64,000 bases of DNA from the NCBI GenBank assembly GCA_944391495.1, contig CALXTU010000002.1, positions 211,736 through 275,735 of the forward strand. Reading direction: 5' to 3'. The stretch comes from an uncultured Alphaproteobacteria bacterium (GTDB lineage Bacteria > Pseudomonadota > Alphaproteobacteria > RF32 > CAG-239). Both the position numbers and the translations under genes were made by a program. This document shows, one piece after another, positions 5,337 through 51,834 of this stretch. The notes under the pieces are model-generated. The model was not told the origin of the DNA and searched no databases. It worked only from the letters and a program-made list of their open reading frames with translations. Numbering within the stretch: position 1 is the stretch's first letter; each line of letters begins with the position of its first letter.

Positions 5337-5439
5337 CGGCAAAATTTCAGCCAAAGCCTTTAAATACGGCTTTTTGATAATATATTTTCGGCAATCGGTT
5401 TTGACAAAAGCCCGAAGATTCTAAGCTATGGAGACGACA

Positions 5440-6057
5440 ATGAAGATTATGATTGCGGACGACCATGCACTTTACCGGGACGGCTTAAGACTCAATCTCA
5501 GCAATATGCTGCCAAAAGCACAAATTTTGGACGCATCTTCTTTTACTCAGGCTCTTGAGCTGCTGAAACTCAATAATGACACCGATTTGATTCTGGCTGA
5601 TCTGGATATGCCGGAGGCAAACTGGGAAAACGGCATTAAAGCAATTAAAGAATATTTGCCCGATGTCAGAATCGGCGTAATATCGGCCTCGGAAGATTCG
5701 CATAACATCAAAAAAGCCCTAAGCCTCGGCGTCTGCTGCTATCTGCCGAAGAATATCGACACCAAGGTATTAAACTCGGCTCTGGGACTGGTTTTAAACG
5801 GTGCGACATATTTTCCGCCGGCATTGCTGAAACAAGCGGCTGACAACATGAATCTTGCCAACGGCAAAAAACTGACCAACCGTCAGTTTGAAGTGCTGAA
5901 ATATCTGGCACAGGGGTTGTCTAATAAACAAATTGCCTATCAGATGTCGGTGTCGGAAGCCACCGTCAAACTGCATATCAATGCGCTTTTGCGTGCCGTC
6001 GGCGCAACCAACCGGACACAAGCTGTTATTAAAGCTCAAAAAATGGGGGTTATTTAA
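5440..6057 (+). CDS. two-component response regulator, REC plus LuxR/FixJ-type HTH
   Basis: The N-terminal receiver domain begins MKIMIADDH...DLILADLDMP, and the C-terminal region carries a LuxR HTH (QFEVLKYLAQGLSNKQIAYQMSVSEATVKLH). A ggag RBS precedes the ATG at 5440; the track start at 5428 is an alternative. Confidence 0.8.
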   Translation: MKIMIADDHALYRDGLRLNLSNMLPKAQILDASSFTQALELLKLNNDTDLILADLDMPEANWENGIKAIKEYLPDVRIGVISASEDSHNIKKALSLGVCCYLPKNIDTKVLNSALGLVLNGATYFPPALLKQAADNMNLANGKKLTNRQFEVLKYLAQGLSNKQIAYQMSVSEATVKLHINALLRAVGATNRTQAVIKAQKMGVI

Positions 6058-6703
6058 AATCTATCAGCGGATATTTTTCCGTACGCCCGTCAGGTAATTC
6101 ATAGTGCCACCATTCATGACGGCGCGGCGCCGGAACCAGTCCCACACTCTGCATCAGCGAACATAACTCGTCCCGGTTGCGGATTGCCTCGGGAATTTGG
6201 TCGTCCTGATAATCAAGCGATGCCTTTTGCAAATAGCGGAAAAAGCCTTGCAGATTTCCGGCCTGCACTTCTTTGGCAAAATTTTCGTCATAGGCATCAA
6301 CCAATGTCGGATAAGGCAGTTCAACACCGTCGGCATCAAGCAGCGCCACATCAACGGCCGTTCCGCGGCAATGCGGCGAACGGGAGGCTTCGGGAATAAA
6401 AAAGCCGTCTTGCGGTATTGCGGCAAACAACAGCCGGTGTGCCGCAGCCGGACGAAAGGCGTCATAGATTTTCAGCCGGCGGCCGGTCTGCTCCAGATAA
6501 GGAATGAGCTTTTGCAGACAGCTCCATAAATCACGGTGCACAAACGCGCGGTTGCCGAGGCCGATTTCCCGATATACCGGCCGGCCGGTCATATTGTGTG
6601 CGGTGCCGGCATACATCAGATCAACCGCAAAATGAGGATCGGTAATTTCAACCAGCCGCTTATCCATAACGCACCGCCTTGATAAAATTTGCAAAAATAT
6701 CAA
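6050..6703 (-). CDS. ddpX: D-alanyl-D-alanine dipeptidase (M15D, VanX/DdpX family)
   Basis: The motifs HCRGTAVDVALLD (H..G.A.D) and EWWHYELPD match Zn ligands and catalytic Glu of VanX-type dipeptidases. Confidence 0.7.
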   Translation of the reverse strand: MIFLQILSRRCVMDKRLVEITDPHFAVDLMYAGTAHNMTGRPVYREIGLGNRAFVHRDLWSCLQKLIPYLEQTGRRLKIYDAFRPAAAHRLLFAAIPQDGFFIPEASRSPHCRGTAVDVALLDADGVELPYPTLVDAYDENFAKEVQAGNLQGFFRYLQKASLDYQDDQIPEAIRNRDELCSLMQSVGLVPAPRRHEWWHYELPDGRTEKYPLIDFK

Positions 6704-43339: not shown

Positions 43340-44680
43340 CTAATTTTCCGGCACATACGGCGTGGCCAGAATAGCGCCGAGCAATTCGTAACACTGCTCA
43401 AGGGTAAATCTTTCCTGTTTGCCCTGCGCCAAAAAGTCCTCCAGCATCGGATAATAAAAAATTGCCTCGTCAACCTCACGGTTGGAGCCTTTTTTATAAG
43501 CGCCCAGGCGGATAAGTTCGGCCATATCCTCATAAGAGGCAATGTATTTGCGAGCCTTGGCGACCATGGCCGCTTCTTCCGGCGTGTCGCAGTCGGGCAT
43601 GGTTCGCGAAATTGAACGCAGGATATTAATGGCGGGATAACGGTTGCGCTCGGCAATGGCACGGTCAAGCACGATATGCCCGTCCAAAATCGAACGCACG
43701 GCATCGGCCACCGGCTCGTTATGATCATCACCGTCAACCAGAACGGTGAAAAGCCCCGTAATACTGCCGGTTCCGGCACCGGGGCCGGCACGTTCCAGCA
43801 GACGCGGCAGCTCGGAAAAAACACTCGGCGTATAGCCCTTGGAGGCCGGCGGCTCGCCGACGGAAAGCGAGATCTCACGCTGAGCCATGGCAAAACGGGT
43901 GATGGAATCCATCATGCAGAGGACATCTTTGTTTTCATCTCTGAAATATTCGGCAATCGCCATGGTTACATAAGCCGCCTGGCGGCGCAAAAGCGGGCTT
44001 TCGTCGGAAGTGGCCAAGACCAGCACCGACTTTTTAAGCCCCTCTTCGCCCAAAACATCTTCAACAAACTCTTTGGCCTCGCGGCCGCGTTCGCCAATCA
44101 GCCCGATGACCGAAATATCGGAATTGGTGTGGCGGGCCATCATAGACATCAGGGTTGATTTACCGACGCCAGAACCGGCAAAAATACCCATACGCTGGCC
44201 TTTGCAGATGGTCAGAAATGCATTGACGGCCTTAATTCCCAAGTCAACCTTGCCTTTAACCCGGTCGCGAAACTGCGCCGGCGGCGGCGATGATTTTATG
44301 AAATACGGTTTGGCGCCTTTAAGCAGCGGCCCCTTGCCGTCAATCGCCTCGCCAAAGGCGTTGACAATCCGCCCCAGCCAGGACGGATGCGGGTAGATGA
44401 CCGGCTTGGCGTCCAAGACCTCGACCGGGCAGTTGACGCCGATTCCATCCATTGAATCATAAGGCATCAGCAGGATTTTATCATCTTTGAAACTGACAAT
44501 CTCACAGGCAACTTTTTTGCCGCGGTTATTGATAACGTTGCAGCGGTCGCCGACGGCCAGCGGACTCAAAATGCCGCTGACTTCGATAAACAGTCCCTGC
44601 ACGCCGCTTACTCTGCCGTAATAAGATGCGGTGTCAAGCTTGGCCAAAGACTGCAAGATATTGTCGGTTAACTCGCCCAA
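43340..44680 (-). CDS. fliI: flagellum-specific (type III secretion) ATPase FliI
   Basis: The product has the Walker A motif GSGVGKSTL and F1/T3SS ATPase architecture. Confidence 0.8.
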   Translation of the reverse strand: MGELTDNILQSLAKLDTASYYGRVSGVQGLFIEVSGILSPLAVGDRCNVINNRGKKVACEIVSFKDDKILLMPYDSMDGIGVNCPVEVLDAKPVIYPHPSWLGRIVNAFGEAIDGKGPLLKGAKPYFIKSSPPPAQFRDRVKGKVDLGIKAVNAFLTICKGQRMGIFAGSGVGKSTLMSMMARHTNSDISVIGLIGERGREAKEFVEDVLGEEGLKKSVLVLATSDESPLLRRQAAYVTMAIAEYFRDENKDVLCMMDSITRFAMAQREISLSVGEPPASKGYTPSVFSELPRLLERAGPGAGTGSITGLFTVLVDGDDHNEPVADAVRSILDGHIVLDRAIAERNRYPAINILRSISRTMPDCDTPEEAAMVAKARKYIASYEDMAELIRLGAYKKGSNREVDEAIFYYPMLEDFLAQGKQERFTLEQCYELLGAILATPYVPEN

Positions 44681-44783
44681 AGCGCCCTCTTAGTAAAAAA
44701 CACAACTTATTGTATACAATAATATTCTGCTTTTTGCCAGAAATATCAAGGTTATCAACACCAAATCATGCCCGCCGGCAAAA

Positions 44784-44807
44784 AGCTGTTAATAATTATT
44801 AACAGCT
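44784..44807. promoter_or_regulatory. perfect 24-bp palindrome AGCTGTTAATAATTATTAACAGCT with TTAA half-sites in the fliI-ctrA intergenic region; candidate operator
   Basis: The palindrome was seen directly in the sequence. A second perfect 16-bp palindrome, TTATTGTATACAATAA, lies at 44707-44722. Confidence 0.4.
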
Positions 44808-44878
44808 CTAAACAAATCCGTTTTATGGCTATATAGTGATAGCATAAGTGGTAAATTGTTTGGAAAGGAAGCTGTGAG

Positions 44879-45568
44879 ATGCGTGTTTTATTGGTAGAAG
44901 ATGATTTTGCAATCTCGCAAAGCATCGAAACCATGCTCAAGAAAGAGGGCATGATTGTCGATACCACCGATTTGGGCGAAGACGGGCTTGAGATTGGCAA
45001 ATTATACGATTATGACATTATCATTCTGGATCTGATGCTGCCGGATATGAACGGCTATGAAGTTTTGCGCAATCTGCGGGCATCCAAAGTCAACACGCCG
45101 GTTTTGATTCTTTCCGGTTTGAGCGAACCCGACAAAAAAGTCAAAGGTCTGGGGTACGGCGCCGACGATTATCTGACCAAACCTTTTGACAAGAGCGAGT
45201 TGTTGGCCAGAATTCACGCGGTTGTCCGCCGCTCCAAAGGACATTCGGAGTCAATCATCAATACCGGCGACGTTGAGGTCAACCTCGACACCCAGACGGT
45301 TACCGTCTGCGGCAAGCCGCTGCATCTGACCGGCAAAGAATACGGTATTATGGAGCTGTTGTCACTGCGTAAAGGCTCGACCCTCAACAAAGACCAGTTC
45401 TTAAACCACCTGTACGGCGGTATTGACGAACCGGAGCTTAAAATCATTGACGTTTTTATCTGCAAGCTGCGTAAAAAACTCGAAAAAGCCTCCGGCGGCA
45501 AAAATTATATTGAAACGGTCTGGGGCCGCGGTTATGTCTTGCGGGATCCCGACGAACCGAAAGAATAA
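44879..45568 (+). CDS. ctrA: cell-cycle response regulator CtrA (OmpR family)
   Basis: The product reads MRVLLVEDD...[27 protein letters not shown]...[14 protein letters not shown]...[11 protein letters not shown] and is near-collinear with alphaproteobacterial CtrA. Confidence 0.9.
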
Positions 45569-45698
45569 CGGTAAAAGCCTCTCGGATTATGAGAGGCTTT
45601 TTTATGCAGCATAACACAACGCCATTACCTGCCGGCTGCGAACGGAATCGGTGATTTTAAAGAAAAATTTTCCGGCCGGATACAACCGGCCGGTCGGT

Positions 45699-46397
45699 TT
45701 AGCGGCGGATTTCAAAACCTTCAAAGTTGGCCTGCAGATAAGCGAGCAGTTCTTTGTCGGCAAACGGTTTTTCGCAATCGTCTTCCGTGGTGGTTTTGTC
45801 GCTGTCCACCGGCCGGTATTTTTGCAAAAAGTATTTTTTTACGCCTTTATTTTTTAACGCTTCGGCTATCTGCCATAAATCCGCCGAGCTGATAAAACGC
45901 GGATCACAGGTCGTGCGGCACTCAAAGTCTGTTCCGGAAGCCAAAAGCAGATCCAGACTCTGCAACACCCGCGCCAAGTGGTCAACGCCGATAATTTCTT
46001 TATAGCGCGCGGCGTCAAACGGCGCTTTGATATCCAGTCCCACCCAGTCGACCAGGGGCAGTATTTTGGCCAAATGTTCCGGCCGGTAACCGCCGGTATG
46101 CAAACCGATTTTGTAGCCCAGAGCTTTGACCTCACGCATCTTGTCGGCCAGGCAATCCTGCACCAGAGGTTCACCACCGGAAAAAGTTACGGCGTCAAGC
46201 TTGCCGACCCGGGTTTTCAGGAAGTCAAAAAACAACTCCCAAGAAAAATCCGTTTCCCTGACAATCGGACGGATAGAAGCATTGTGACAAAAAGGACAAG
46301 ACCACGGGCAGCCCTGCATAAAGACAACAGCCGACAAAACCCCGGGAAAGTCAACGGCGCTGAATTTCTCAACGCCGCCGACTACAATTTCAGACAT
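45699..46397 (-). CDS. nrdG: anaerobic ribonucleotide reductase activating protein (radical SAM), long NrdG type
   Basis: The product has CPWSCPFCHN and is the last gene of the nrdD operon. The track ORF start at 46454 overlaps the upstream ORF; the Met at 46397 is preferred. Confidence 0.65.
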   Translation of the reverse strand: MSEIVVGGVEKFSAVDFPGVLSAVVFMQGCPWSCPFCHNASIRPIVRETDFSWELFFDFLKTRVGKLDAVTFSGGEPLVQDCLADKMREVKALGYKIGLHTGGYRPEHLAKILPLVDWVGLDIKAPFDAARYKEIIGVDHLARVLQSLDLLLASGTDFECRTTCDPRFISSADLWQIAEALKNKGVKKYFLQKYRPVDSDKTTTEDDCEKPFADKELLAYLQANFEGFEIRR

Positions 46398-46411
46398 TTT
46401 TTGTTTACGGA

Positions 46412-46630
46412 TTATTCCGCCGCGATGTCCATCGCACCACATTCGCAATGGCAAGCGCAGCCGTCAATCGCCTTAAGTTCAGAAAAACATACACGAGAGC
46501 GGTATTCCGATTTTTTGCCGACATTAAATTCGGAGTACGGACGCAGATAGCCCATAACGCGGGTCCATACTTCGCAAGGCTGTCTTTCTTCATCTGCAAG
46601 TTTGATATCTTCAAAATTAACAGTATTCAT
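46412..46630 (-). CDS. stand-alone glycyl-radical loop subunit of class III RNR (split NrdD C-terminus) with an extra CACHCEC cluster
   Basis: The product has its own RBS (ggag). Its segment VWTRVMGYLRPYSEFNVGKKSEYRSRV aligns with the NrdD C-terminus VVRRVCGYLGSPDARPFNAGKQEEVKRRV. Confidence 0.6.
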   Translation of the reverse strand: MNTVNFEDIKLADEERQPCEVWTRVMGYLRPYSEFNVGKKSEYRSRVCFSELKAIDGCACHCECGAMDIAAE

Positions 46631-46666
46631 TAGTTTTCTCCATATTTCTTGTTCAAAAATTAAAAC

Positions 46667-48748
46667 TTAAGCAACATCTTTTCTTGACGCTGCGGCTCTC
46701 TTGGCTGCCTTCAACTCCTCATCGCAGATCGGGCAGTACTTATGTTCTCCTGAAATATATCCATGCTTGGGGCAAATGGAAAAAGTAGGAGTGATGGTAA
46801 TGTACGGCAAACGGTAGTTTGTCAGGACACGTTTGACAATGTCACGGCAAACCTTGGCTGAGGATATTCTCTGGCCCATATACAGGTGCAAAACGGTGCC
46901 GCCGGTATATTTTGTCTGCAGGGTTGACTGCAAGTCCAGAGCCTCAAAGGGGTCATCCGTGTAACCAACCGGCAACTGCGACGAATTGGTATAGAACGGA
47001 TTTTCTTTCGGGCCGGCCTGAATGATGTCAACAAAGCGCTTTTTGTCCTCACGGGCAAAGCGGGTGGTGGCACCCTCGGCAGGCGTGGCCTCCAAATTGT
47101 ACATATGGCCGGTTTCTTCCTGGATTTTTACCAGCTTGTCGCGGATGTAATCCAGGAATTTGATGGCAAAATCCTGTCCCCACTGATCGGCAATATTGTG
47201 CTCGTCATTGGTGTAGTTGCGAATCATCTCGTTGATGCCGTTGACACCGATGGTCGAGAAATGGTTGCGCAAAGTGCCGAGATAACGTTTGGTGTAGGGG
47301 AACAAGCCGCCGTCAATCAGACGCTGAATTAATTTGCGCTTGATTTCCAAAGAGGTTTTGGCCAATTCCAAAAGCTCGTCCAAACGGGCATACAATCCGG
47401 CCTCGTTGCCTTTGTAAACATAACCTAAGCGGGCGCAGTTAAAGGTGACGACGCCGATGGAGCCGGTCTGCTCGGCCGAACCGAACAAGCCGTTGCCGCG
47501 AGCCAGAAGTTCGCGCAAATCAAGCTGCAGGCGGCAGCACATCGAACGAATCTGTCCCGGTTTCAAAACCGAATTGATGAAGTTTTGGAAATAAGGCAGA
47601 CCGTATTTGGCCGTCATCTCAAACAGCAGCTCGGTGTTTTCGTCTTCCCACGGAAAATCCGGCGTCATATTATAAGTCGGGATCGGGAAGGTAAACGGAC
47701 GACCCTTGGTGTCGCCTTTCATCATGACTTCCATATAGGCCTTGTTGATCATATGCATTTCTTCCTGCAGATCACCATAGGTGAAGTCCTGCTCCTCGCC
47801 GGCAATAATCGGATGCTGCGCACGCAAATCCTCCGGGCATACCCAGTCAAAAGTGAAGTTAGTGAACGGTGTCTGGGAACCCCAGCGGGACGGAACATTC
47901 AGGTTGTAAACTAGCTCCTGCATGCTCTGATAAACCTGTTTGTAAGTCAGTTTGTCTTTGCGGACATAAGGCGCCAGATAAGTATCTACCGAGGAGAAAG
48001 CCTGCGCACCGGCCCATTCGTTTTGCAGCGTACCCATAAAGTTGACCATCTGGCCGACGGCAGCCGACAAATGCTTGGCCGGACCGGCTTCAGCCTTACC
48101 CGGAACGCCATTGAAGCCTTCATGCAGCAGATTCTTCAACGACCAGCCGGCGCAATAAGCGGCCAGCATGCTCAAATCATGAATATGCATATCGCCGTTG
48201 CGATGTGCCTCGCCGATGGCTGCCGGATAAACATGGCTCAGCCAGTAGTTGGCGGTAACTTTGCCGGCAACGTTCAAAATCAGGCCGCCGTTGGAATATC
48301 CTTGGTTGGCGTTCTCATTAATGCGCCAGTCGAGTTTTTCCAGATATTCGTTAATCGAACTCTCAACATCGACCATAACTCTATGATCCTGGCGAGCCCG
48401 GTTGCGCTGGTCGCGATACAAAATATAGGCTTTGGCCGTGGCAAAGTAGTTGGCGGAAATCAAAACCTGCTCGACGATATCCTGAATCTGCTCAATTGAC
48501 GGCAGGCTTTCGCTGAATTTGTGTTTCAGCACTTTTAAAACCTGAGCCGTCAGCAGCCGACTCTCATCATCGCCGAATTCCTTGGTCGTGGCGCCGGCTT
48601 TGTTAATGGCATTATAAATTTTGTCGCTGTCAAACGGCGCCAAAGTTCCGTCGCGTTTGACAACTTTTTCAATCCCGACTTTCTTGCCGGCTCCTGAAGA
48701 TTTTTTATTCTCTGCTTCTGACATAATCCGTTTTTCTTCCTTAAACAT
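46667..48748 (-). CDS. nrdD: anaerobic ribonucleoside-triphosphate reductase NrdD (ATP-cone; C-terminally truncated after the Zn ribbon)
   Basis: The N-terminal ATP-cone (VVKRDGTLAPFDSDKIYNAINKA) is present, and the product ends ...CPKHGYISGEHKYCPICDEE without a glycyl-radical motif. Confidence 0.8.
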   Translation of the reverse strand: MFKEEKRIMSEAENKKSSGAGKKVGIEKVVKRDGTLAPFDSDKIYNAINKAGATTKEFGDDESRLLTAQVLKVLKHKFSESLPSIEQIQDIVEQVLISANYFATAKAYILYRDQRNRARQDHRVMVDVESSINEYLEKLDWRINENANQGYSNGGLILNVAGKVTANYWLSHVYPAAIGEAHRNGDMHIHDLSMLAAYCAGWSLKNLLHEGFNGVPGKAEAGPAKHLSAAVGQMVNFMGTLQNEWAGAQAFSSVDTYLAPYVRKDKLTYKQVYQSMQELVYNLNVPSRWGSQTPFTNFTFDWVCPEDLRAQHPIIAGEEQDFTYGDLQEEMHMINKAYMEVMMKGDTKGRPFTFPIPTYNMTPDFPWEDENTELLFEMTAKYGLPYFQNFINSVLKPGQIRSMCCRLQLDLRELLARGNGLFGSAEQTGSIGVVTFNCARLGYVYKGNEAGLYARLDELLELAKTSLEIKRKLIQRLIDGGLFPYTKRYLGTLRNHFSTIGVNGINEMIRNYTNDEHNIADQWGQDFAIKFLDYIRDKLVKIQEETGHMYNLEATPAEGATTRFAREDKKRFVDIIQAGPKENPFYTNSSQLPVGYTDDPFEALDLQSTLQTKYTGGTVLHLYMGQRISSAKVCRDIVKRVLTNYRLPYITITPTFSICPKHGYISGEHKYCPICDEELKAAKRAAASRKDVA

Positions 48749-48785
48749 TTTATCGTTAGACTCGCCATGTCGAATTTGACATTAA

Positions 48786-48832
48786 ACATACAATATCTAG
48801 TCTTAATAAAAAGTAAACTCACTATATATAGT
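48786..48832. promoter_or_regulatory. candidate tandem NrdR boxes upstream of nrdD
   Basis: The box cACTATATATAGTa (48821-48832) and a degenerate ACAATATCTAGT about 31 bp away resemble the NrdR-box core. Confidence 0.4.
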
Positions 48833-49129
48833 ATGCACAATTTTTTTATGATGGTAAATAAAGAACAATAATTCCGATATCTTTTACTGTGGTTCATTCT
48901 AACTTTTACCCCCGCCGGCTCAACCGAAAATTAGTTAACAAAAAGGTGATTCCGCACTATCTATTTAAAAAAAGGCGATAAAAAAATTTTGAGGTTGAGG
49001 ATAAATTTCTTAATAAAATTTTTATTTGGCAATCTGTCTAAAAATTTAGGTAATTTAAGCAAGAAATTAACCAATTTCCGACAATTTCCGAGTCGGATTT
49101 TCAACGGCGGATTCGACTCGGCCGGGAGG

Positions 49130-49900
49130 GTGATTTAACGTTACTTTTGTACGGACAAAAGTAACCAAAAACCGCCGGATATTTCATTCTTTAGAATGGC
49201 GGCACACCTCTACCTGTCATGCCTCCGAATGAAATGAGGATCGGGCATCTTCCGCTCTCTCACCTGTCATGCCGCCAAGGCAAGCATTCTTGCCTTGGCT
49301 AAGGCATCTAAAAGTTGAAGATCGCTTATCCACGTGAAGAATGCTTCCCGAGGAGCGATGACTGTTTTAGGATATGTCATTCTGAGGAGCAGAGCGACGA
49401 AGAATCTGTCCTGTCATGTTGAGCGGGAGCGAAACATCTCAGAAGAGATTCTTCGCTGTCGCTCAGAATGACAGTTTCCTTTATTGTCATGTTGAGGAGC
49501 AAGGCGACGAAACATCTCAATTTAACGTTACTTTTGTACGGACAAAAGTAACCAAAAGCCGCCGGGATAAGCGCTCCTCTTAACGCCCCGGCTGCGCCGG
49601 CATATCAGGCGCCGTAACTTGGCATCTTTGACAAGATGCCGCAGACAAGACGGCGATAAGGCTGACAGACCTGATTCCGGCTTGCCGGGGCTGATACGCG
49701 CAAAATCCCGGACCCTTAAGTATTTGTTCTTTTCCCCAAGAGGCAATGTGCTTAAAGGGAGATTCTTCGGGACTTGCGCCCCTCAGAATGACAGAAAAAG
49801 AATGTCATGTTGAGCGGAAGCGAAACATCTCAGAAGAGATTCTTCGCTGTCGCTCAGAATGACGGGGAAAAAGCGCTCGGGGCAACAAAAAGGAAAAAGC
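49130..49900. repeat. second cluster of modular palindromic repeat elements
   Basis: AACGTTACTTTTGTACGGACAAAAGTAACC occurs twice (49138 and 49523). The GTCATTCTGAG...CGCTCAGAATGAC and CCTGTCATGCC families seen at 29640-29935 are also present. Confidence 0.8.
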
Positions 49901-49926
49901 CTCCGTTTTTGACGGAGGCTTTCGGG

Positions 49927-51834
49927 TTAATTCGGCTGTTTGACGACGTCTTCGCCCAAGACTTCCTCGGCAATATATTCGTCCGTACACTGCCGGCCGA
50001 CACAACGTTTTAAAACCGTTGCCTCCCGCCCCTCGGTCAAACCGCGCAGCTTTACCGACGGTACATAAACATCAGTAATCTTAATTTTAAAGGTAACGTA
50101 AGCCGTTGTCCCCTCTTCATCGGTCAGATAAGCTTTCAGCGTATAAGAGCCGACGTTGCCGGGCATTGCCATACCGACAAAGGCGCGTTTTTCTTCATCA
50201 AACATTACCCAGTCCGGCAGCGGCGAATCGTCAACCAACCCGGCTTTAATGGTGACTTTTCCTTTGAAATCCATCTTGTTCATAATCGCATCGGGAATCC
50301 GGACTTCAAACTTCCGGCCGCTTTCAAGCTCCAGATCCGGCAGCAGTTTTGACGATGACAGATTAACCGGCGGACGTTTAGCCGGAACATCAAGCAGATA
50401 GGGGCGATTGTCCGGCAAAAATTCGCCTTTGCGCCATTTTTCCAAAACACCGCGCAGATAAACGGCTATTTTGGACGGTTTTTCATTGAGCATATAATAA
50501 GGAATCGCGTCCATACCCAACGTGGCATATAGATTGCCCAAAGCATCCTGCAAATTAACATAGGCCAACAGCGCTCTGCCCTCATCGGCAACGGCGCGTG
50601 CCGCTTCAAGCTGAGATTTGGCCGCACGGGCGCCGTCCGTCATGGTTGTGTCTTCGGCAATGTCCTCGGAGGCTTTAGCCAGTTCATCGGCAATCCGGTA
50701 ATCTTCCATTGCCGACATATACCGCGCCCAAGCGACATAAACCTGTGTCAAAACCAATGTCGTCATCCGCTGGCGACGCAGCGCTTCGGCTTCAAAATAT
50801 TTGGGATCTTTGACATTTTCAAAGACTTCCAGACCAACCTCTTTGGCCTTGCGCGACCACATACGGTTATAGTAGGACGGATTGTTTTTGTATTTGACAT
50901 TGCCCGGATCGGAAAAAACTTTGAACGAGGCAATGACCTCGTCAATATTGGTCACCAGATCGCGCACCCGGAGTTCCGGACGATTGGTCAGCGCAACCCA
51001 TTCCATCTCGCTTAACGAGCTTTTGATTTCCGGCAGATCAAAATTGCCGTTTTCCCGACCGACGAGCTTAAATTCGGTGGAGGGATGAAAACCCATTAAT
51101 GAAGCCAGACGAACCTCGGCAGTTTCAAAATCGCGTTTCAAGGCCGATAATTCTTTGACGGATTCCATATATTCACGCTTGCGCTCCAGATCAGCAACAC
51201 TCAGGCTTTTGCCCTCTTTGGCCAGATCGGCCGACTGGGCGTTCAGTTCATCGACGTCAAGCGTCATATATTCGATCATATCATCAATCACCGGCAGTAA
51301 ACGCTGGGCCGACAGGGCTTTCCAATACAAAACCCGCGTTTCCTGCATCAGGTTGTGAATAACCTTGCGGCTCTGTTCATAGGCAACACTGGTCTGATAC
51401 CAGTCATCTTTACTTTGGTAATAAACCGTGCTGACATCAAGAATGTTCCAGGCCAGTTTAAGCTCGGAATCCATTGCGCCGGCGTTGCTGGTATTGACAT
51501 AACCGGCGGAAGAAAAAATTTCCGGCAGACGGTTTGCGGGGTTTTGCCCGACTTCAATCATGCTCTGCTGATAGCTGACCAGCCGGCGGGTATAGTTATA
51601 TTTTAAGGCAAGCGCAAAGGCCATATACATATCTATCGGCTTTTCGATGCGGCGCGGCAGGTTGGCGTACATCGACTGCATATCCGTATCGACGCGAATC
51701 GCCCTGTCCCAATCCGTATAAGCCGCCGGCGCCGGAACGTTTATCTCAACAACCGAATTGCCACCCTCCTTGGAACAAGCGGCAATCATCAGAGAAAAAA
51801 CGCTGAGTAAAACTACTATTTTTTTCATAACCAT
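49927..51834 (-). CDS. NodT/OprM-type outer-membrane efflux lipoprotein fused to a C-terminal putative Ig-like (He_PIG/cadherin-like) domain
   Basis: The product has the lipobox IAACS and OMF-like helical repeats. Its C-terminal segment of about 170 aa reads LPDWVMFDEEKRAFVGMAMPGNVGSYTLKAYLTDEEGT. Confidence 0.6.
   Translation of the reverse strand: MVMKKIVVLLSVFSLMIAACSKEGGNSVVEINVPAPAAYTDWDRAIRVDTDMQSMYANLPRRIEKPIDMYMAFALALKYNYTRRLVSYQQSMIEVGQNPANRLPEIFSSAGYVNTSNAGAMDSELKLAWNILDVSTVYYQSKDDWYQTSVAYEQSRKVIHNLMQETRVLYWKALSAQRLLPVIDDMIEYMTLDVDELNAQSADLAKEGKSLSVADLERKREYMESVKELSALKRDFETAEVRLASLMGFHPSTEFKLVGRENGNFDLPEIKSSLSEMEWVALTNRPELRVRDLVTNIDEVIASFKVFSDPGNVKYKNNPSYYNRMWSRKAKEVGLEVFENVKDPKYFEAEALRRQRMTTLVLTQVYVAWARYMSAMEDYRIADELAKASEDIAEDTTMTDGARAAKSQLEAARAVADEGRALLAYVNLQDALGNLYATLGMDAIPYYMLNEKPSKIAVYLRGVLEKWRKGEFLPDNRPYLLDVPAKRPPVNLSSSKLLPDLELESGRKFEVRIPDAIMNKMDFKGKVTIKAGLVDDSPLPDWVMFDEEKRAFVGMAMPGNVGSYTLKAYLTDEEGTTAYVTFKIKITDVYVPSVKLRGLTEGREATVLKRCVGRQCTDEYIAEEVLGEDVVKQPN

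Follow-up and report, generated by a model that had tools for sequence, protein, structure and literature searches.

We have analyzed a three-gene locus in a stretch of 64,000 nucleotides (hereafter the window) from an uncultured Alphaproteobacteria bacterium (assembly GCA_944391495.1, contig CALXTU010000002.1, positions 211,736 to 275,735). On the minus strand, between positions 45699 and 48748 of the window, lie in this order a gene for the catalytic chain of a class III (anaerobic) ribonucleotide reductase (nrdD-large), a spacer of 36 nucleotides (nt), an open reading frame (ORF) of 72 amino acids (aa) and the activase gene nrdG. We interpret the locus as a functional two-subunit class III ribonucleotide reductase (RNR) in which the radical module acts in trans, a reading that we hold with a probability of about 0.8. 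Judged from sequence, no element of a class III RNR is missing once the large and small ORFs are combined, and the cognate activase is co-encoded. The large protein supplies an ATP-cone, a 10-stranded barrel with an MCCR finger loop and a complete Cys/His Zn ribbon, and the small protein provides the glycyl-radical loop, which ordinary NrdD carries behind the Zn ribbon in a single chain. A preliminary sequence-only reading of the window had described a large ORF with ATP-cone and Zn ribbon and without a Gly-radical motif, followed after a 36-nt gap with a GGAG by a 72-aa ORF resembling the NrdD C-terminus and then by an NrdG-type activase. Profile searches with Pfam and NF006126 bear out its account of the large ORF, and the remaining elements were all found where it had placed them. 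The features of the three genes, in positions of the window, are:

46667-48748, minus strand: nrdD-large, 693 aa, the class III RNR catalytic subunit without a glycyl-radical loop.
48401-48667, minus strand: ATP-cone allosteric domain, aa 28-116 of the large subunit (PF03477, E 1.8e-25).
47531-47542, minus strand: MCCR finger loop, aa 403-406, the presumed thiyl-radical cysteine site.
46724-46774, minus strand: Zn ribbon C659-x2-H662-x9-C672-x2-C675, complete inside the large subunit.
46670-46723, minus strand: basic helical C-terminal tail of the large subunit (DEELKAAKRAAASRKDVA), not present in short-linker fused NrdDs.
46631-46666, minus strand: spacer, exactly 36 nt from the TAA to the next ATG, with a Shine-Dalgarno (SD) GGAG at 46638-46641.
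46412-46630, minus strand: nrdD-small, the 72-aa glycyl-radical protein, matching the C-terminus of NrdD models.
46481-46585, minus strand: conserved core RQPCEVWTRVMGYLRPYSEFNVGKKSEYRSRVCFS, aa 16-50 of the small protein, with the Gly27 codon at 46550-46552.
46439-46459, minus strand: Cys cluster CACHCEC, aa 58-64 of the small protein, in a variable, low-confidence tail.
46412-46420, minus strand: clade-specific C-terminus AAE of the small protein.
45699-46397, minus strand: nrdG, radical S-adenosylmethionine activase of 232 aa, with CPWSCPFC at 46287-46310.

The large ORF is recognized by two NrdD models and stops before the end of both. It matches Pfam NRDD (PF13597) over aa 145-684 with 594 bits (cutoff 26.2), covering model positions 1-538 of 562 and leaving out the final ~24, and it matches NCBIfam NF006126 with 1120.8 bits (cutoff 548) over model positions 3-661 of 684. 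The protein terminates in ...CPKHGYISGEHKYCPICDEELKAAKRAAASRKDVA, 18 residues past CPIC; with the stop at Pfam model position 538 of 562, no RVxGY glycyl-radical loop is present on this polypeptide. Its alignment to the NrdD of Thermotoga maritima (4COI) extends only to CPVCGK610. The finger loop, searched for as MGCR or MCCR, reads MCCR, the mark of the double-cysteine lineage of class III RNRs, which is judged able to use formate or thioredoxin (PMC9669993). The Cys and His residues of the Zn ribbon are invariant in the two alignments examined, and in T. maritima NrdD the Zn is bound through CxxxHx6CxxC (PMC4493059). Cys19 of the small protein was considered as a fourth ligand in a Zn site bridging the subunits, which is unnecessary given that the T. 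maritima ribbon is itself Cys/His/Cys/Cys. Beyond the ribbon the split large subunits share a tail, CDEE[LK]KAxKR..., that short-linker fused forms do not have. The start of nrdD-large is probably ATG 48724, which gives 685 aa, the length of most orthologues.

The small ORF matches the far ends of the same models, at positions 531-562 of 562 in Pfam NRDD (E 6e-8) and 649-682 of 684 in NF006126. Gly27 of the small protein lies within VWTRVMGYLRP, and a small-protein profile aligns to residues 615-643 of T. maritima NrdD, the stretch containing Gly621; relative to that enzyme the break falls exactly between the Zn ribbon (CPVCGK610) and the Gly621 loop. A profile search of the PDB with the small protein returned matches to NrdD only. 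The loop is preceded by a conserved leader of ~20 aa, L-x-D-x-ERQ-x-CEVW. The small gene stands alone, with 72 aa and its own SD and ATG, and the homologues listed are all short. The gene that follows encodes an activase of the NrdG2 type (TIGR02495, 197.1 bits, cutoff 131.15) with its CX3CX2C motif at 46287-46310; ATG 46397 (232 aa) is a likelier start than TTG 46454, and leaves no overlap with the upstream gene.

A partial construct consisting of large-subunit residues 543-693 and the small protein was modelled with AlphaFold2 (AF2) from a 114-row alignment. The resulting 223-residue model has a predicted local distance difference test (pLDDT) score of 83 and a predicted template-modelling score of 0.74, and each of its top 7 PDB matches is a class III RNR, with alignments of 189-205 columns. 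Residues 20-25 and 28-31 of the small protein are predicted to form a beta-hairpin with Gly27 at its tip, and the adjoining leader (aa 10-19) reaches pLDDT 97. The tail of the large subunit is a predicted helix (construct residues 131-148), in a block of pLDDT 96-97 that drops to 87 at its end, and the Cys-rich tail of the small protein is of low confidence.

In the window the small ORF is in frame with nrdD-large over a single TAA. This is what would be expected of a broken nrdD pseudogene, arising from a sequencing or assembly error or from a recent nonsense or frameshift mutation, and it would equally suit programmed stop-codon readthrough or ribosomal frameshifting that yields a fused NrdD, with no independent translation of the small ORF. 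The in-frame position is a coincidence: in a locus of the same or a sister species (L007; 97% identity in the large and 99% in the small protein) the spacer is 40 nt and the frame is another. We counted 74 related gut and rumen alphaproteobacterial loci that hold the upstream nrdD, from independent assemblies. The small ORF is separate in all 74, in relative frame 0, 1 or 2 and behind a spacer of 27-127 nt, while the large ORF ends at a constant place and the operon partner never has the glycine loop. The small ORF is also under strong purifying selection, with a median ratio of nonsynonymous to synonymous substitution (dN/dS) of 0.12 over 1751 usable pairs; between the window and L007 the corresponding proportions are pN 0.006 and pS 0.273. 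An SD-like motif precedes the small ORF in at least 59 of the 80 sequences examined. Since complete genomes of cultured Cupriavidus, Ralstonia and Paracoccus are split as well, a pseudogene is in effect ruled out. The sequence-only reading had left a choice between a natural gene split and a very recent frameshift, and had proposed a search of related genomes; the 74 loci with their varied frames and spacers, the purifying selection and the identical layout in distant cultured Proteobacteria decide for the natural split, and the window does not hold one uniquely broken copy.

Readthrough or frameshifting is hardly more credible. All three frame offsets occur, and the two genes may overlap by up to 26 nt, stand as much as 142 nt apart or even be unlinked; SD and ATG are present at most loci, and an Rfam scan of 45000-50500 found no RNA element. 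A split intein or trans-splicing was also rejected. Intein halves would measure about 100 and 35 aa, against 18 aa for the tail and ~20 aa for the leader; the leader has its homologue in the linker of long-linker fused NrdDs, and no intein family appeared in the Pfam scan.

The small protein is widespread. Metagenomes and metagenome-assembled genomes (MAGs) yielded 343 short homologues of 47-111 aa, and a scan of one genome per species found a relative in at least 598 genomes, the best 80 of which are MAGs of gut and rumen Alphaproteobacteria. A profile search of 1.84 billion representatives gave 4120 clusters at 50% identity, 965 of them at E<=1e-10; lengths among the best 150 run from 54 to 153 aa. 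Among plasmids, tblastn against PLSDB matched 161 replicons, including those of Ralstonia, Bradyrhizobium, Cupriavidus, Paracoccus, Allochromatium and Thiothrix. Plasmid pHG1 of C. necator H16 encodes a 676-aa 'ribonucleoside triphosphate reductase' ending ...CPRCDEEILARKRDQLAA and, 142 nt after it, a 66-aa coding sequence (...ERQPCEVWTRVMGYHRPVSSFNVGKQGEH...) that RefSeq names 'nrdD', followed by the activase. Paracoccus ferrooxidans and R. solanacearum have the identical three-gene layout, with the small coding sequence annotated as 'hypothetical'. In the C. metallidurans genome paper NrdDG are given as Rmet_5137 and Rmet_5139, so that the intervening gene is skipped. The nrdDG genes of C. 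necator H16 are reported, in PMC2864759 with citation of Siedow 1999, to be essential for denitrifying growth; given the split layout of this strain, it is therefore a split system that has been reported as required in vivo.

Other metagenomic loci with the order large gene, small gene, nrdG have junctions of a 26-nt overlap (in a Gammaproteobacteria MAG), a 4-nt overlap (beside nnrS and crp/fnr genes) and a 19-nt gap. In a further Gammaproteobacteria MAG locus (L167; GCA_027295305.1, JAPULC010000433.1, ~5350-6000) the upstream gene ends at 5347, only ~650 nt from the small gene; the Zn ribbon and tail of a large subunit can still be detected before the small gene, but no large gene is called there. 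At locus L168 an identical small protein is preceded by a full 678-aa large gene. The state of L167 could be a deletion, a remnant or a mis-assembly. An Alphaproteobacteria MAG (L082, 5001-5210) has a solo small gene between atpD/atpC-like and clpB-like genes with no phage genes evident, which may be a second, unlinked chromosomal copy.

Fused relatives of the split enzyme were recovered with a chimeric query spanning the junction. They come from Actinobacteria, Legionellales, Rickettsiales and candidate phyla, share 59-69% identity across the junction and read CPxC-(2-15 aa)-CEVWTRVMGYxRPVSxFNxGKKGE. In a few fused proteins (P0305, P0249 and P0252) the linker is long and already contains the leader L-x-D-x-ERQ-x-CEVW. 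A rough neighbor-joining tree (169 columns, no support values) shows 7 split groups interleaved with fused forms, and in it the long-linker protein P0305 is the nearest neighbor of the split L168. Because these linkers hold the leader and P0305 neighbors a split enzyme, the comparison suggests that linker expansion probably came first and fission afterwards. The same data would suit a neutral gene fission that left a permanent, tight complex equal in function to fused NrdD, with no adaptive role and no exchange of subunits. The interleaving of fused and split forms, and the position of P0305 beside L168, are as this would have them, and the split class II NrdJa/NrdJb is a precedent for a benign RNR split (PMC9669993). 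What speaks against it comes from copies of the small gene that have no large gene beside them.

Such copies are common in viruses. In IMG/VR, 302 viral contigs were found to encode a relative of the small protein, and gene neighborhoods were drawn from the best 80 (L087-L166). At 76 of these 80 loci the match is an ORF of 48-130 aa with neither nrdD-large nor nrdG within 8 kb. Of the rest, L094 has an adjacent split pair without ATP-cone; in L160 and L161 a large gene of the truncated type (ending CPKCDAELLAKKANK) lies 2.7 kb from the small gene; and in the 80th, which has no partner gene nearby, the match falls in a longer open frame of 166 codons. At L113 (7980-8186) and L096 (7995-8210) the small gene sits between an endolysin gene and a divergently oriented integrase gene, a classic moron position, and homologues of these integrase or endolysin genes occur within 3 kb in 21 of the 80 loci. 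The PHROGs database places the viral small proteins in phrog_4132, 'unknown function'. In INPHARED and GenBank phages there was essentially no homologue, the single match being the nrdD of ANMV-1. Bacterial genomes carry solo copies in similar company. L005 has its small gene (6001-6207) within a prophage. On a 256-kb bacterial contig the homologue P0094 is found by itself, where a tail, baseplate and lysis module ends. The viral copies examined keep the leader and the RVMGY hairpin with its flanking motifs, and therefore derive from small subunits of the split type. Two side observations concern the same viral loci. The split-type large subunit of L160 (10859-13264) has 801 aa, of which ~145 form an insertion, possibly a domain or an intein, between the regions corresponding to window residues 238 and 242. 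In 9 of the 80 loci, L113 (4823-6058) among them, the 3 kb upstream of the small gene include a reverse-transcriptase gene (phrog_1423).

The 302 viral contigs with the small gene, the 76 of the best 80 that have no large gene or nrdG within 8 kb, and the solo copies in bacterial genomes (L082, and L005 in its prophage) are difficult to account for without a small protein that is limiting and can be supplied in trans. We infer trans action of the radical module from the viral genomes that carry the pair unlinked (L160) or the small gene alone (76 of 80). The permanent and functionally neutral heterodimer is nevertheless a serious rival, if on balance an unlikely one. Solo viral copies without a partner gene nearby would also suit a small protein, especially a phage-borne one, that served as a decoy or regulator, soaking up NrdG activity or blocking the large subunit. 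King and Reichard reportedly found in 1995 that O2-truncated NrdD can inhibit the enzyme. This role is very improbable, as the large subunit has no glycine of its own and needs a glycine donor for activity, and in the viral copies examined conservation extends to the RVMGY hairpin and the motifs around it, which is what a functional radical site would show.

For the two-subunit enzyme with a radical module acting in trans, the following course of events may be proposed. NrdG would abstract a hydrogen from Gly27 while the small protein is free or loosely bound; the glycine of fused NrdD is buried and has to swing outwards along with the C-terminal domain (PMC4493059). The small protein would then enter the large subunit's barrel and dock there by its conserved leader and hairpin, beside the MCCR cysteine. 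The glycyl radical would generate a thiyl radical on the finger-loop cysteine, and catalysis would proceed from there as in fused NrdD. Glycyl-radical enzymes are cut by O2 at their radical glycine; the split would therefore confine the damage to an 8-kDa module, which could be resynthesised, re-activated and swapped as a replaceable cartridge. We give this rationale for the split about an even chance. An exchangeable cartridge would explain why temperate phages carry the small gene alone. More tentatively, and at slightly poorer odds, NrdD-small may constitute a large unrecognised family of autonomous class III RNR cartridges, which temperate phages of gut, rumen and environmental Proteobacteria would carry alone, as a moron, keeping the large subunit of the host charged after oxygen exposure or during infection. 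It would then be the first trans radical module outside pyruvate formate-lyase (PFL) and the first glycyl-radical enzyme with an obligatorily separate radical domain.

The C-terminal tails of both proteins vary. Among 88 loci with a paired large and small gene, a CxC motif occurs in 50 of the small tails and 4 of the large tails, and in 34 loci neither tail has it. The sequence-only reading had singled out the Cys-cluster extension as a feature of the small protein; it proves to be variable and, on these counts, dispensable. CxC (or CGGC) recurs in flexible C-terminal tails, mostly of the small subunit and at times of the large, as at L003 and L084 (QQACAC) and L174 (GCGC). The motif resembles the redox-shuttle Cys pairs that class I/II RNRs have in their tails, and a redox-shuttle function like that of those C-termini was considered; it is not essential, given the 34 of 88 loci without CxC in either tail. 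A terminus ...AAE is found in 78 of 84 bacterial operon small proteins, nearly all of them from the gut and rumen alphaproteobacterial clade, and in 10 of 80 viral copies; the small proteins of Cupriavidus, Paracoccus and Ralstonia do not have it. Large subunits of the gut and rumen clade terminate in ...[ED]VA, and a few in ...GAAE.

Several points weigh against our interpretation. Docking, stoichiometry and exchangeability in any split system are inferred. The AF2 model of the full-length large subunit with the small protein was poor (pLDDT 47), the multiple sequence alignment being too shallow over the N-terminal 430 aa, and did not serve for docking. The cartridge rationale is not required, since a tight permanent heterodimer predicts equal conservation. 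The interpretation does not account for the C-terminal AAE or the wandering CxC motif. Finally, a full-text search of the literature, incomplete in its coverage, returned no description of a split NrdD or of an NrdD spare part, and an earlier account (e.g. Siedow 1999) is possible.

Two further kinds of feature flank the operon:

45672-45693, minus strand: strong intrinsic-terminator-like hairpin at the operon end, 8 G-C pairs and a T-rich tail.
48819-48834 and 48788-48803, no strand assigned: two NrdR-box-like palindromes, 31 bp apart, directly upstream of nrdD.

The two palindromes match ACACWATATATWGTGT with 2 and 3 mismatches, and the window holds 3 such matches in total against 0.36 expected. 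Their distance, about three helical turns, fits tandem NrdR operators. These operator-like palindromes imply a putative control of the split operon by NrdR. The NrdR boxes upstream, the terminator downstream, the intact MCCR loop, the Zn ribbon and the NrdG gene are signs of what is probably a live operon. A second terminator-like hairpin (46671-46693, 8 pairs and a T-rich tail) overlaps the last codons of nrdD-large, before the small ORF, and could tune the ratio of large to small expression; hairpins of this kind are no more numerous in the region than chance would give. Upstream of nrdD, the 1.1-kb intergenic region contains nested direct and inverted repeats (49133-49863). Among them are units of 61 nt and 46 nt that recur at a distance of ~390 bp, and hairpins (for example GTTACTTTTGTACGGACAAAAGTAAC). 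These repeats resemble elements of the REP (repetitive extragenic palindromic) or MITE (miniature inverted-repeat transposable element) type. Neighbors of the operon at 43340-45568, assessed by their translations alone, look like a flagellar ATPase of the FliI type (446 aa) and a response regulator of the OmpR type (229 aa). If these identities hold, the host is probably a motile gut or rumen alphaproteobacterium.

The split is visible in public annotation and yet has apparently gone unrecognised. The small gene appears as 'hypothetical', as an 'nrdD' of 66 aa, or not at all in the gene table searched. In a survey of RNRs the glycyl-radical domain of class III is regarded as lying C-terminal to the catalytic chain (PMC9669993), and the phylogenetic dataset behind that survey comprises only sequences of 400-1100 residues (PMC9531940); surveys filtered by length in this way would lose the small gene and take the large subunit for a complete NrdD. 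The general view places the radical glycine of glycyl-radical enzymes on the catalytic chain, and the existence of trans modules outside PFL now becomes a testable question. Split NrdD offers a natural system, with no engineering needed, for activase recognition and for the docking and undocking of a radical domain, and it is available in the tractable C. necator H16, Paracoccus denitrificans and Ralstonia solanacearum. The phage copies (phrog_4132) would be a new class of auxiliary metabolic gene, tied to oxygen stress and the supply of deoxyribonucleotides.

The closest known system is the canonical fused NrdD of the MCCR/PRK08270 type (NF006126), of which T. maritima NrdD (4COI, 4U3E) is the solved relative. 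The two have in common the ATP-cone, the barrel, the double-Cys finger loop, the Cys/His Zn ribbon, the RVxGY loop and the NrdG2 activase; they differ in that the glycine loop is here on a separate polypeptide. Compared with short-linker fused NrdDs, the large subunit also gains a basic helical tail and the small protein a conserved leader of ~20 aa. A second comparison is with Escherichia coli GrcA/YfiD and with phage T4 Y06I. These two cofactors of PFL are the only validated trans-acting glycyl-radical proteins, and according to Andorfer et al. 2021 and a June 2026 review spare-part proteins are known for PFL only; both leave it open whether other glycyl-radical enzymes have them. Like them, the small NrdD protein is a small stand-alone glycyl-radical-loop protein, presumably activated by the cognate activase and acting in trans, and like Y06I it is also carried by phages. 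It derives, however, from NrdD and is not homologous to the PFL C-terminus: the Pfam scan of the small ORF at E<=1 gave PF13597 only, with no match to PF01228, the PFL-type glycyl-radical domain. The analogy with GrcA drawn in the sequence-only reading thus holds for a small autonomous glycyl-radical protein, and is strengthened by the solo phage copies, but does not extend to membership of the GrcA family. A similar qualification applies to the trans-acting subunit proposed there. The radical piece is indeed separate, but GrcA (14 kDa) rescues an enzyme that has lost its own loop, whereas the operon small protein (about 8 kDa) is an obligate subunit rather than a spare part, because its large partner has no glycine loop of its own. 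The third comparison is with the split class II NrdJa/NrdJb of Pseudomonas aeruginosa (Crona et al. 2015, as summarised in PMC9669993), where barrel and C-terminal module likewise come from two adjacent genes. In that class II enzyme the detached part is a redox/Zn-finger tail, whereas in the split NrdD the Zn ribbon stays on the barrel and only the radical loop is detached.

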